From Chthonomonadaceae bacterium (GTDB lineage: Bacteria > Armatimonadota > Chthonomonadetes > Chthonomonadales > Chthonomonadaceae): 52,290 nt of DNA. The notes under the pieces were generated by a model that did not search any database, was not told the origin of the DNA, and worked only from the letters and a program-made list of their open reading frames with translations. A program made the translations under genes and the position numbers. Shown here in pieces: positions 10,218-28,153 of the stretch. The stretch lies in contig DASRGZ010000188.1 in NCBI GenBank assembly GCA_035650735.1, forward strand, positions 1 through 52,290. The letters are read 5' to 3'. Positions within the stretch are counted from its first letter, which is position 1; each line of letters begins with the position of its first letter.

Positions 10218-10266
10218 TAAAATCCGCCATTTCGGGGATGTACGCCGCCTTAAGGAACGCTATACT
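10218..10266 (+). promoter_or_regulatory. Regulon box c plus -10 element
   Basis: AAATCCGCCATTTCGGGGATG; TATACT at 10261, 39 nt from the ATC start. Confidence 0.75.
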
Positions 10267-10310
10267 GAGGATAATAGCGTGATAGAAGCAGAAGAAGGAG
10301 GTGAGCGATT

Positions 10311-10691
10311 ATGTATCCGCAGTGGATGCGTAAGATCGCACTCTCGTTGGCCCTGCTGTGGGCTTGCGGGTGGAGCTTCTTCGCGGTGGCTTCCTCTATC
10401 GGCGAAGGCTATACATGGCCGAAGCTGCTGCCCGGTATCCTGGCGGCGTTGGTGTTTGTAGGCAGCCTGCTTCTGGCCTGGCAATGGGAGCCTATCGGCG
10501 GCAGCCTGCTGATCCTGGAGGGGCTGCTGGTCTGTACCGCCTACGCGACCGGCTTTCTGCATGCCCGGTCCGCGAACACAATGTTCTTCGTACTCCTCCT
10601 GCTGGCTGCTCCAGCAATGGTATCGGGACTGTTGCTGTTGGGGAACTGGTGGAAGCGAACGCGGAGTCTAGTCCCTCTCTCCGGCATGTAG
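10311..10691 (+). CDS. Four-TM membrane protein, unknown function
   Basis: AAGGAGGT RBS; four hydrophobic segments. Confidence 0.75.
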   Translation: MYPQWMRKIALSLALLWACGWSFFAVASSIGEGYTWPKLLPGILAALVFVGSLLLAWQWEPIGGSLLILEGLLVCTAYATGFLHARSANTMFFVLLLLAAPAMVSGLLLLGNWWKRTRSLVPLSGM

Positions 10692-10732
10692 CCGGAGTAA
10701 ATGCCTTACCGCCCAAGTAAGGAGGTAGAGAG

Positions 10733-25703: not shown

Positions 25704-25760
25704 AGAAGGGGAGGGGCCAGGCTTCTAGGGTTCCTGATTCTGGCCCTTAACCCTTAGAGC

Positions 25761-26444
25761 CTAATTCGAGGTCGGCCCCAGGCCATGACGCGCCGCCCAC
25801 ACGGCCGCCTGCACCCGGTCCGAGACGCCCAACTTGCCCAGGATATGCTCGACATGGGTCTTGACCGTACTCTCGGCGATAAAGAGCACCGAGGCGATGT
25901 CCCGGTTGTTCAATCCGGTCGCCAGCAGACGCAGCACCTCGGCTTCTCGCTCCGTCAGCGGCTCGATCAGGTCCTCAGAACCCGCCGCCTGCTCGCTTAG
26001 GCCTCGCAGGGAGCGCACCAGGTCCTGGGCATTCAGCAGCATCTCGCCATTGGCGACGGCGCGCAGCGCCTCCAGAAGCTCCTCCAGCCCGACGCCTTTG
26101 AGCAAATAGCCCGCTGCCCCGCCGGCCACCGCCCGGGCCATGAAGGTAGGGTTATCGTAGGTGGTCAGCATAATGACCGCTATATCGGGGTGCTTTTGCT
26201 TGAGCGCTTGCAGGGTATCCAATCCATCGCTGCCAGCCATGCGAATGTCCAGCAGCACCAGTTGGGGGTGCAATGTATCCACCAGCTCCAGCGCTTCCTT
26301 GCCCGAGGAGGCTTCACCGACGACCTGGAACTCTGTATCCTCCAGCATGCTGCGCACCCCGCCCCGCCAGATGGCGTGATCATCTACCAGCAGCACGGTG
26401 ATGGGGCGGGCCTGCGCCCCGGCGGCAGAGGTTGGCTCGCTCAT
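25761..26444 (-). CDS. NarL/DosR-family response regulator
   Basis: LLVDDH, LLDIRM, LTTY, LLK; LuxR HTH LTEREAEVL...STVKTHVEHILGKL. Confidence 0.95.
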   Translation of the reverse strand: MSEPTSAAGAQARPITVLLVDDHAIWRGGVRSMLEDTEFQVVGEASSGKEALELVDTLHPQLVLLDIRMAGSDGLDTLQALKQKHPDIAVIMLTTYDNPTFMARAVAGGAAGYLLKGVGLEELLEALRAVANGEMLLNAQDLVRSLRGLSEQAAGSEDLIEPLTEREAEVLRLLATGLNNRDIASVLFIAESTVKTHVEHILGKLGVSDRVQAAVWAARHGLGPTSN

Positions 26445-28153
26445 CTGTCGTCTCCCTCCTTACTTTGCGGGGGCGATGCCAGCACCGGAAACACTGCCCG
26501 GATGGTGGTTCCCGCATCGGGGGCGCTGTGTAATTCGTAGGTGCCCCCCATCAGGCTGACACGCTCGCTCATGCCCTGCAGGCCGACACGGCCATTTTCT
26601 CCGATCTTCTCTTCCGGCACGAAACCGCATCCCCAATCGCGAACCTCCAGGACGAGTTGGGCCGCCCGGGGCCGCTCTTCTTTTTGTAGCAGCAAGAGCA
26701 CCCGCACGGCGGCGGCTTGCGCGTGTTTGCGCGTATTGGTGAGGGCTTCCTGGGCGACCCGGTACACTGCCGTCTCCAGGGTCTTATCGAAGCGTTGACC
26801 TGCAATATTATGGATCAGATCGGCGCTCTGCCAGCCCGCGCGCTGCTTTTCCTCCGCAAGCAACTGTTCCAGCGCGCCCGCCAGCCCCATCTCGTCCAGC
26901 GCCAGCGAGCGCAGGCCGTTGACCAGCCGCCGCGACTCGACGACCGCCTCTTTGAGATATTGCAGCCCCTGCTCCACCTCTCGCGCCGCTTTGGCCTGAT
27001 TGCCCGCCGCATACGCCCGACGAAACGCCTCCAGATGGGCATGAGAAGCCATTACGAACTGCGTCAGGCCGTCATGCAGGTCGTAGGCGACCGCCCGGCG
27101 CTCCTCTTCCTGCGCGGCGATCAGCCCGCTCACGAGAGCGCGCTGCCGGGAGATCATGTGCAAATTGTGAATGGCCACCGCTGCATAATCGCCCAATGCC
27201 TGCACTGCAATTTCATCGGCCTCAGTGAAGGGACCGCCCCCCTCCTTATTCGTCAGATAGAGGCTGCCCAGCACCGTATCACCGCGTCGGATAGGCACCC
27301 CGAGGAAACTCTCCATCGGCGGATGGTTGGGCGGGAAGCCTGCGGAAGCCGGGTGGTCTCCGAGACGATCAATGCGCAGCGGCTCGGTCCGCTTCAGCAG
27401 CAGGCCCAGCACCCCGACCCCTCTGGGGCGTGGGCCAATCGCGGCTTCTTCTTCCGGCGTCAGGCCTACCGTGGCAAACTCCAGCAATCCCTGTCCATCG
27501 GGGCGAGCGACTCCCAGCGCCGCATAGCGCGCCCCGGAGAGAGTACGCGCCGCCTCGGCGATATGGCGCAAGGCCTCCACCCCGGTCTGGCTGGAAAGAA
27601 TGTCCAGGGCGACGCGGCGAGCCGTTTCCATCACCAGGGAGCGGCCCTCTTCCGCCGCCTGCAGTTCCGTCAGCGCCTTGTTGGTCCTTTTGCGCTCGGT
27701 AATATCGGCAAAGATAACGATCGTGCCGCGAATCTCCCCATCCTCCACGATGGGGCGGCAGGTATATTCCACCGGGAAAGAGGTGCCATCTCGCCTCCAG
27801 AGCACCTCGGTATCCCCCTGGCAGCCCTGTCCCGTCTGAAAAGCGCGCCAGACCGGGCACTCCTGCTGCGGATAAGGAGAGCCATCCGGGCGGCTATGGT
27901 GGGTGAGAGCGTGCATATCCTGGCCCAACAGTTCTTGGCTCTTGTAGCCGAGCATCTGCGCGGCGGTTTGGTTAATGAAAGTACAGCGGCCTTGCCGATC
28001 CACGCTATAGATCCCTTCGCCCGCCGACTCCAGCAGCAGGCGGAAGTGGTCGGCCAGCCGCGCCGATTCTGCTTCCGAACGCCCAGACCGATCAGGCACG
28101 GGCATTGCAATCGCATTCGCGGGCGAGTCGTTCCTCATGTTTTTATCTGGCAT
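26441..28153 (-). CDS. Soluble PAS-GAF-HisKA_3 histidine kinase with a DosS/DevS-like heme GAF
   Basis: PAS/[14 protein letters not shown]...[23 protein letters not shown]...[43 protein letters not shown]. GGAG RBS before 28153. Confidence 0.92.
   Translation of the reverse strand: [570 protein letters not shown]

Follow-up and report, generated by a model that had tools for sequence, protein, structure and literature searches.

Does a heme-based gas-sensing system of the DosS/DosR kind, complete with a dormancy-type regulon, operate outside the Actinobacteria? The question is raised by a 52,290-nt stretch of DNA from a Chthonomonadaceae bacterium (contig DASRGZ010000188.1 of assembly GCA_035650735.1; hereafter the window), in which a first-pass annotation, made from the sequence alone, read positions 10218..28153 as a soluble sensor kinase, a coupled NarL-type regulator and a cluster of stress and respiratory genes that mostly share an upstream box. 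Our follow-up finds a kinase with a DosS/DosT-type heme pocket, a partner regulator whose predicted reading of DNA is not that of DosR, and a promoter box that tracks this pair across the phylum Armatimonadota. The sensor domain and the gene kit are already known and widespread; the regulator–box pair appears to be new.

The sensor histidine kinase (26441..28153, minus strand) is a 570-aa protein in which a domain search finds PAS (residues ~36-151), GAF (~193-329), HisKA_3 and HATPase_c domains. Its maximum 19-residue hydropathy (KD19) is only 0.91, so we predict no transmembrane helix, in keeping with the soluble kinase first proposed. The GAF segment carries a proximal-histidine motif and GSLYLTNK, which align with GFPPYHPPM and LYLT of DosS (E ~1e-34). 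The five best PDB sequence matches of this domain are all DosS/DosT GAF-A (E 1e-34 to 2e-33), and so are the 17 best fold matches of an AlphaFold model of residues 165-570 (mean predicted local distance difference test score, 85.6), which superpose with a root-mean-square deviation of 1.4-1.7 A over ~140 residues at 45-49% identity. The resemblance to DosS GAF-A noticed in the first pass is thus upheld by both alignment and modelling. By alignment, His277 corresponds to DosS His149 (DosT His147), the position of the proximal heme ligand; Tyr299 corresponds to DosS Tyr171 (DosT Tyr169), the distal position; and Gly214 corresponds to DosT Gly85, where DosS has Glu87. These three positions and the phospho-accepting His360 in HisKA_3 are invariant in 124/124 close kinase homologues, a count that omits the query kinase and four multi-GAF class I kinases. 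The position of DosS His89/DosT Arg87 is Ala in 123/124 of them, with Arg one residue later in 90/124. Passages of PMC4082495 describe His149 of DosS as the proximal ligand, Tyr171 as the residue of the distal hydrogen bond, and the roles of Glu87/Gly85. This GAF is the sole one with a heme motif in the genome to which the window belongs (G000). We regard b-type heme as its likely cofactor and O2 as the gas that it likely senses, probably along with NO/CO.

Outside the pocket the kinase is less like its mycobacterial counterparts. There is a single GAF, the DHp follows it directly and GAF-B is absent, so that part of the proposed domain order stands; the added PAS, by contrast, does not define the family. 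Because ~40% of the homologues lack a PAS, this domain is, as far as their sequences tell, an optional accessory; a long N-terminus is present in 68/118 scorable homologues, and no homologue has a PAS that is at least 50% identical to that of the query. The kinase core belongs to the HisKA_3 class, as in DosS, and its PDB matches are VraS and DesK. At E<1e-6, blastp matched it to none of the five actinobacterial DosS-type cores compared, and it is 27-34% identical to the cores of Chloroflexota DosS-type kinases.

The stop codon of the kinase gene and the start codon of the regulator gene overlap as ATGA at 26441-26444, preceded by AGGAGGGAG, which bears out the translational coupling claimed for them. 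The regulator itself (25761..26444, minus strand; 227 aa) is a NarL/LuxR-type response regulator in which REC and GerE domains form the NarL-subfamily architecture of a receiver and a LuxR-type helix-turn-helix (HTH), and it is the predicted box-binding activator. Its best solved-structure matches are NarL (150 bits) and VraR/LiaR (140-142 bits), ahead of DevR (127 bits). The recognition helix reads ESTVKTHVEH; when placed in register by the EKTVKNY helices of DosR-type regulators, its E-S-T-V-K-T-H has Ser in place of DosR Lys179 and Thr in place of Asn183 and keeps only the equivalent of Lys182. These three residues are named as the base-contacting ones of DosR in PMC4082495. Judged by its helix, the regulator does not share DosR's way of reading DNA.

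The shared box is an 18-bp pseudo-palindrome, AATCCGCCATTTNG(C/G)GGATG, whose consensus can also be written ATCCGCC-ATTT-NG(C/G)GGAT. Seven matches with at most 2 mismatches lie in the window, compared with a mean of 0.28 and a maximum of 3 in shuffled sequence. A weight matrix finds 14 sites of at least 27 bits in G000, 13 of which had themselves seeded the matrix, and the next site scores 16.9 bits. In 64/96 box hits, drawn from loci of G000 and its relatives with a few counted twice in overlapping loci, a TAnn(A/C)T element begins 21-22 nt beyond the box, and every other offset accounts for two or fewer. Because the -10 element starts at this distance, the right arm of the box overlaps the -35 position. 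Such a placement fits the geometry of a class II activator, with mostly one box per promoter; divergent promoters carry two boxes, as in the window at 1733/1864 and 18061/18126. A general consensus promoter scan missed the box promoters, as expected where the -35 element is replaced by an activator site.

Within 10218..28153 there are four boxes, each leading one transcription unit. Box AATCCGCCATTTCGGGGAT, with a -10 element TATACT 21 nt downstream (10221..10266, plus strand), leads the genes for DUF7670 and Hsp20 proteins, and box AATCCGCCATTTAGGGGAT (13980..13998, plus strand), followed by a -10-like GATAAT, leads an AhbD/AhbC-like pair. A third, with the -10 element TATAAT (18034..18079, minus strand), leads two small conserved genes and a tandem universal stress protein (USP) gene; its divergent partner, with CATAAT (18126..18172, plus strand), leads a NasC-like operon. 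Elsewhere in the window, a box with TACAAT (1706..1751, minus strand) leads an exported hypothetical gene (867-1568), one with TAAACT (1864..1909, plus strand) leads an open reading frame (ORF; 1915-3363) with no Pfam match, and a weaker box (5007..5025, minus strand) leads a second LuxR-type regulator gene (3993-4916) and a cytochrome c gene (3535-3939). With these boxes at 1733, 1864 and 5007 and seven strong ones on other contigs, the regulon extends beyond the cluster. What was first described as a clustered programme therefore survives as a box-defined low-O2/NO gene set linked to the pair, but one that is genome-wide. None of three DosR/OsdR site patterns has a match in the window, and the box, whose arms read CCC...GGG and not GGGAC...GTCCC, is by its sequence not a DosR box. 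We take the CCC...GGG arm order to be that of NarL sites. In a literature search that covered mostly openly accessible journals, we found no published description of the system or the box, and an earlier mention of non-actinobacterial DosS homologues is possible; the box is apparently undescribed, and with its regulator it apparently forms a well-supported new pair.

The link between box and pair was examined across 251 genomes of the phylum, with a kinase orthologue defined by an E value below 1e-90 and a box pattern derived from G000. At least three boxes occur in 23/36 kinase-positive genomes (22/35 without G000) compared with 3/215 kinase-negative ones. Among these exceptions, G025 and G198 have box matches without a -10 element at the right distance, and G221 has an orthologue of the regulator (73%). 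A box with its -10 element lies within 3 kb of the regulator gene in 16/28 loci, and no more than 400 nt downstream of it in 10/28; both arrangements are absent from 8.9 Mb of shuffled DNA. The box thus tracks the kinase/regulator pair across Armatimonadota. Eight kinase-positive genomes (G003, G257, G018, G033, G034, G051, G179 and G224) have no match to the strict box pattern; among them, variant boxes occur in G003 (6), G257 (4) and G018 (2). In three genomes of one genus (G033, G034 and G039) the kinase GAF lacks both heme residues and a degenerate box stands just behind the regulator gene; a loose genome-wide search, made in G033 only, found no further box there. The GAFs of this genus (loci L035, L036 and L037, from G033, G039 and G034) lack the heme loop, the His and the Tyr and sit on a long branch, a natural sensor-loss variant, and the degenerate box of G033 leads a transporter-like gene. 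In G017 the kinase is split and there are no boxes.

What the box leads was surveyed in flanking DNA from 14/15 boxes of G001, 5/9 of G007, ~25/34 of G010, all those listed for G019 and 8/8 of G040, together with a Pfam scan of 109 chosen proteins from box loci, kinase neighbourhoods and the window. In G000, boxes outside the window precede cydAB, a hemerythrin gene, a unit for a zinc alcohol dehydrogenase (Zn-ADH), an acetyl-CoA hydrolase and a P-type ATPase, and a DUF308 unit; a weak box precedes a HemG-like gene. Across G000 and its relatives, persistence-type units include USPs, Hsp20, an Acg-family oxidoreductase (255 bits against the NF047509 cut-off of 199), a CBS protein whose best solved match in the PDB is Rv2626c, and an M50-CBS protease; AAA_33, BON and baeRF3 proteins and cation ATPases are also box-led. 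Core families of the DosR-type regulon are thus present, Hsp20 and USPs in the window and Acg, CBS and cation ATPases behind boxes in relatives. Respiratory and NO-related units encode cytochrome bd, quinol-type NO reductase (qNor), RIC, globin, rubrerythrin and decaheme cytochromes, and metabolic ones phosphoketolase with acetate kinase, pyruvate:ferredoxin oxidoreductases, glycolytic enzymes, HypD, transhydrogenase and glycogen phosphorylase. Many box-led genes have no family match at all. Contig C131 of G019 carries 16 boxes in 66 kb. On the strength of gene content, the box-led set reads as a low-O2/NO switch, from which dormancy would be an extrapolation.

We consider it probable that these elements form one signalling route, in which heme-bound O2 keeps the kinase off, hypoxia or NO/CO activates it, and the phosphorylated regulator binds the box over the -35 position and activates the regulon. 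His277 would hold the heme iron, and distal O2, hydrogen-bonded by Tyr299, would keep the kinase off, as reasoned from DosT; from Gly214, the oxy complex is predicted to be as stable as that of DosT. Once O2 is lost, or NO/CO bound, His360 would autophosphorylate and pass the phosphate to the coupled regulator. A phosphorylated regulator dimer is proposed to occupy the 18-bp box, which is observed to end 21-22 nt before the -10 element, and, bound over the -35 position, to act as a class II activator. The targets predicted to be co-induced would comprise high-affinity respiration (cydAB), O2-independent heme synthesis and electron sinks such as the NasC-like enzyme and multiheme cytochromes, along with fermentation enzymes, NO handling (qNor, RIC, globin and hemerythrin, in G000 or relatives) and, for persistence, USPs, Hsp20, Acg and CBS proteins.

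Several observations weigh against this reading. The shared box is beyond chance and leads four units, but in G000 neither the USP unit at 11703 nor the kinase/regulator pair is led by one. The genomes counted above are related, so they are not independent and kinship inflates any test made on them. Three kinase-positive genomes have no box, G051 by the loose pattern and G179 and G224 by the strict pattern only. Conversely, G221 combines 19 promoter-linked boxes and the regulator with no DosS-type GAF among 22 candidates, the kinase beside its regulator being cut by the contig end; given this pattern, it may be the regulator, more than the heme sensor, on which the box depends. An obvious link to O2 is lacking for some box-led genes, among them a sugar isomerase-like gene (C64), efflux systems and sigma factors in relatives. 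Finally, the redox-versus-gas role of Glu87/Gly85 is itself described as disputed in PMC4082495.

Alternatively, the regulator might bind the box while the main input is something other than O2 tension, such as redox state (Fe2+/Fe3+), NO/CO/H2S, heme availability, or a signal from the PAS or from other HisKA_3 kinases. For DosS, a redox-sensing role is argued in PMC4082495 and binding of H2S is reported in PMC9062744; G221 has a rich regulon and no heme GAF was found in it; related kinase cores with other inputs occur (G020:C23 and C134, G008:C76, G064:C3); and the targets include genes for heme synthesis and many heme proteins. We nevertheless regard a non-O2 main input as unlikely. The Gly at the Glu87 position, kept in all of the close homologues, is the DosT gas-sensor state, the PAS is divergent wherever it is not missing altogether, boxes are few in the genus that has lost the heme residues, and responses to low O2 classically involve cydAB, USPs, Hsp20 and Acg. 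It is more doubtful still, and in our view quite improbable, that another factor binds the box, be it the second LuxR-type regulator, CRP/FNR, Rex or an FG214-like heme HTH-PAS regulator, with the pair merely sharing its island. FNR/CRP, too, typically act from a class II position, Anr/Fnr motifs lead the same gene kit in the Burkholderia lxa locus (PMC3721108), and the second LuxR gene has a box upstream; set against this, the box stands directly behind the regulator gene in 10/28 loci.

Of these candidate binders, the second LuxR-type regulator, CRP/FNR and an FG214-like regulator were rejected. The second LuxR-type regulator is found in 10/41 relatives; it is missing from the box-rich G001, G007 and G019 and present in the box-free G031 and G036. 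For CRP/FNR, the genome has two clear CRP-family proteins, both on other contigs and without the FNR-type cysteine cluster (Rex was not searched), and the box has no TGA-N6-TCA core as an FNR/Anr-type regulon would. According to 10.64898/2026.03.15.711900, the site bound by FG214, a protein of another member of the Armatimonadota, consists of GGGGCGGGG inverted repeats set 2 bp apart; 0/13 strong LuxR-HTH hits in G000 combine an N-terminal HTH with a long C-terminal domain (two short proteins and one weak 562-aa hit were followed no further). The last possibility, a horizontally moved DosS/DosR orthologue pair that brought the DosR regulon with it, is largely refuted and hardly credible. The 46-49% identity of the GAF to DosS/DosT GAF-A and the overlap of target families with the DosR regulon speak for it, but GAF-B is absent, the kinase core has no match to the five actinobacterial DosS-type proteins, Ser and Thr occupy the positions of DosR Lys179 and Asn183, the box reads CCC...GGG in a window devoid of DosR/OsdR-pattern matches, and a strongly supported branch splits the Armatimonadota GAFs, and likewise the regulators, from the actinobacterial and Chloroflexota rows. 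A heme-GAF kinase that signals low O2 or NO/CO through a regulator with its own DNA code is thus the reading we prefer.

The remaining genes of the cluster agree with the first-pass list of Hsp20, USPs, heme-synthesis-like genes and a nitrate-reductase-like operon, with the qualification that AhbC/AhbD-like and NasC-like proteins score below their own cut-offs. Domain searches assign a DUF7670 membrane protein (10311..10691), an HspX-type Hsp20/alpha-crystallin (10733..11242), the USP without its own box (11703..12134), an SRPBCC/polyketide-cyclase-fold protein (12212..12907) and a Trm112-like protein with an S-adenosylmethionine (SAM) methyltransferase domain (13106..13966, with an open frame from 13028), all on the plus strand. 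Between Hsp20 and this USP lies a unique 460-nt intergenic stretch (11243-11702) with several hairpins and no box, and a 41-nt direct repeat (12920-12960/12990-13030; 95% identity, 70-nt spacing) separates the SRPBCC and methyltransferase genes. The box-led pair that follows on the plus strand encodes a radical SAM/SPASM protein resembling AhbD heme b synthase (14070..15176), which passes the TIGR04053 cut-off, and an AhbC/NirJ1-like radical SAM protein (15167..16369; 426-433 bits against a cut-off of 650); both score below their own NCBIfam cut-offs for AhbD and AhbC, and a fused AhbAB-like gene on contig C80 scores 72 bits against 125 for AhbB. On the minus strand, a domain search identifies the tandem USP (16454..17383), preceded by the two small hypothetical genes 17377-17643 and 17690-17998 (17377..17998), look-alikes of which stand behind boxes in relatives among the matches listed.

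The NasC-like operon begins, on the plus strand, with genes for a 4Fe-4S dicluster protein, a Rieske protein, a DUF6755 protein, a TDT/SLAC1 transporter, a QmoC-like membrane protein and an alginate-export-family porin (18306..23200), and ends with that for a Mo-bisPGD catalytic subunit (23538..25703). NasC is the best of all models for this molybdoenzyme, which scores 848 bits against an equivalog cut-off of 1100 and is not of the NarG type; it carries an RLCM motif, presumably the Cys-Met active-site motif. In G019 (L048:15160-15528) a deletion appears to have left of the operon only a fusion that joins the N-terminus of the 4Fe-4S protein to the C-terminus of the molybdoenzyme, and this remnant is still box-led. 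An identical 108-nt element with terminal inverted repeats, resembling a miniature inverted-repeat transposable element (MITE), occurs at 9937-10044 and at 23197-23304, the latter copy inside the operon; it has 75 BLAST hits in the genome and, with at least 14 copies at 100% identity, would be recently active. A second repeated non-coding element (23311-23520, also near 47050-47179) has 112 BLAST hits at 72-94% identity and resembles, as we assume, IS200/IS605-type ends. Together the two elements separate the porin and molybdoenzyme genes.

Upstream of the cluster, a plus-strand unit (5231..9899) encodes a decaheme DmsE/MtrA-like cytochrome, a 598-aa protein that matches no family and may be an outer-membrane partner, and a multiheme lipoprotein. 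It has no same-strand box in G000 and is box-led in relatives G019 and G001; this unit and its counterparts (L049:9574-14167 and L061) may represent an extracellular electron transfer module. The second LuxR-type regulator (3993-4916, minus strand) combines a receiver that is degenerate with an insert rich in Cys and the DosR-like helix STVKNYVS, and its orthologue in G010 (L099) is box-led, too; it is possibly a second-tier or Fe-S/NO sensor. BlaI/CopY-family repressor genes lie at 28196-28792 and 32724-33206, the first divergent from the kinase and followed by an ORF that is not obviously intact. On other contigs of G000, a cluster on C5 (L041; 2732-9259) joins a HemG-like flavodoxin, Zn-ADH, an acetyl-CoA hydrolase-GNAT fusion and a P-type ATPase under two strong boxes and one weak one and is interrupted by insertion sequences, and on C17 (L044; 45817-49509) an Rrf2 regulator is divergent from a RIC iron-sulfur repair gene with a weak box, a strong box standing before a truncated Zn-ADH. 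A second, alternative F-type ATP synthase operon is found behind a box in G010 (L081) and also, with other genes in between, in G207 (L308).

How widely is the system spread? Named homologues of the kinase come from Chthonomonadaceae, Abditibacteriaceae, Capsulimonadaceae and Capsulimonas corticalis (CCAX7_006690, P0070), so the system is placed in Armatimonadota, as the first-pass annotation had suspected; within that phylum a kinase orthologue occurs in 6/43 sampled families. A scan of all species genomes for the box with its -10 element returned at least 121 stretches; among the 80 listed, 62 are from Armatimonadota and the rest are scattered, mostly as single hits. The matches in Caldilinea were taken as unrelated, with 1-2 per genome, two of the three beside an integrase-like gene, and a kinase identity of 31-33%. 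The location outside the Actinobacteria is confirmed but proves less unique than first thought, as 66/201 sampled genomes of Chloroflexota (the phylum of G268, by record title) have a DosS-type GAF, and clusters of look-alike GAFs are dominated by Actinomycetota, Chloroflexota and Gemmatimonadota. A tblastn search of plasmids gave only actinobacterial hits (32 records), which says little about chromosomes. In most of the 33 Chloroflexota loci inspected the GAF keeps the His and Tyr; USPs adjoin several of these kinases among the matches listed, and several stand beside regulators with the DosR-type helix EKTV(K/R)NYVS and have DosR/OsdR-like sites nearby. Going by such features, the Chloroflexota pairs may be true DosS/DosR systems outside the Actinobacteria. 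DosR/OsdR-like palindromes were seen at L302:215, L303:8871, L305:5730 and L306:9232 within the Chloroflexota loci L229-L231, L243-L272 and L301-L306.

In a midpoint-rooted GAF tree, which omits the split G017 kinase, 20 Armatimonadota GAFs fall on one side of a branch (100/100), apart from the actinobacterial and Chloroflexota rows, and a quick, midpoint-rooted tree of the regulators likewise places 20 from Armatimonadota on one side (99); the trees carry no claim on the direction of transfer. More tentatively, and with somewhat less than even confidence, we propose that a heme-GAF sensor and a hypoxia-survival kit are common to Actinomycetota, Chloroflexota and Armatimonadota, and that Armatimonadota grafted the sensor onto a lineage-specific core and a regulator with a new code. 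The result would be a master O2/NO switch that replaces FNR in ~1/7 of the sampled genomes of the phylum and governs persistence genes, cytochrome bd, NO reductase, fermentation and MtrAB-like extracellular electron transfer.

The published work on DosS/DosT-DosR that we found is actinobacterial. If our interpretation is correct, the kinase is a natural one-GAF version of DosS that would test the purpose of GAF-B and the route of the heme signal to the kinase, and regulon content would have been kept while the DNA code of the regulator changed. For a phylum of which few members have been cultured, it would also define a specific transcription-factor site and its regulon, make the box usable for listing low-O2 genes, including several unnamed small proteins, and suggest that the Armatimonadota carrying the system cope with low oxygen. 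The claim is directly testable because the cultured Capsulimonas corticalis has the named homologue CCAX7_006690.

Among known systems, the closest comparison is with DosT/DosS (DevS)-DosR (DevR) of M. tuberculosis, which likewise pairs a soluble HisKA_3 kinase, with the heme GAF residues His149/Tyr171 and, in DosT, Gly85, with a NarL-subfamily regulator. Target families are shared as well, namely alpha-crystallin, USPs, an Acg-family nitroreductase, an Rv2626c-like CBS protein and a cation ATPase; hspX, USPs, Acg, Rv2626c and a cation ATPase are entries in Table 1 of PMC4082495. The differences are equally clear. The kinase has one GAF, not two, an optional PAS and an unrelated-looking core, and unlike DosR its regulator has the helix ESTVKTH, a different palindrome, mostly one box per promoter, and extra respiratory and electron-transfer targets. 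DevR, according to passages of PMC3177182, needs at least two boxes with half-sites GGGACT, whereas the box described here has the opposite arm order. The claim of a DosS/DosR-like system therefore holds for the heme pocket, but not for the regulator's DNA reading, the box or the kinase core.

Other relatives fill in the picture. OsdK/OsdR of Streptomyces coelicolor (SCO0203/0204) is similarly a non-mycobacterial relative of DosS/DosR with a clustered core regulon, which includes USPs, a nitroreductase, a Zn-dehydrogenase, nitrate reductase, hemerythrin and protoporphyrinogen oxidase; OsdR retains 11 of the 13 residues with which DevR binds DNA, and its site, AGGGCCGATCGGCCCT, is of the DevR type (PMC5069765); neither is kept by the regulator and box here. 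The lxa locus of Burkholderia cenocepacia is described in PMC3721108 as a clustered low-O2 island of several USPs, alpha-crystallin, a nitroreductase and a cation ATPase, in which a motif precedes the majority of units and a few further sites lie outside. Its motif is Anr/Fnr-like (TGA-N6-TCA), with CRP-family candidates, whereas the box in Armatimonadota tracks a heme-GAF kinase and a NarL-type partner. The Chloroflexota pairs share the GAF and, in several cases, have regulators with DosR-type helices, with kinase cores as distant as noted above. NarL of E. coli and VraR-LiaR of staphylococci and enterococci are the best structural matches of the regulator, but the box sequence differs, and their kinases are membrane-bound sensors of nitrate or the envelope, unlike the soluble kinase described here. 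Read from its sequence, then, the Armatimonadota pair is a rewired relative of DosS/DosR and not a member of that family, set apart by its single GAF, its different kinase core, the residues of its regulator and its box.

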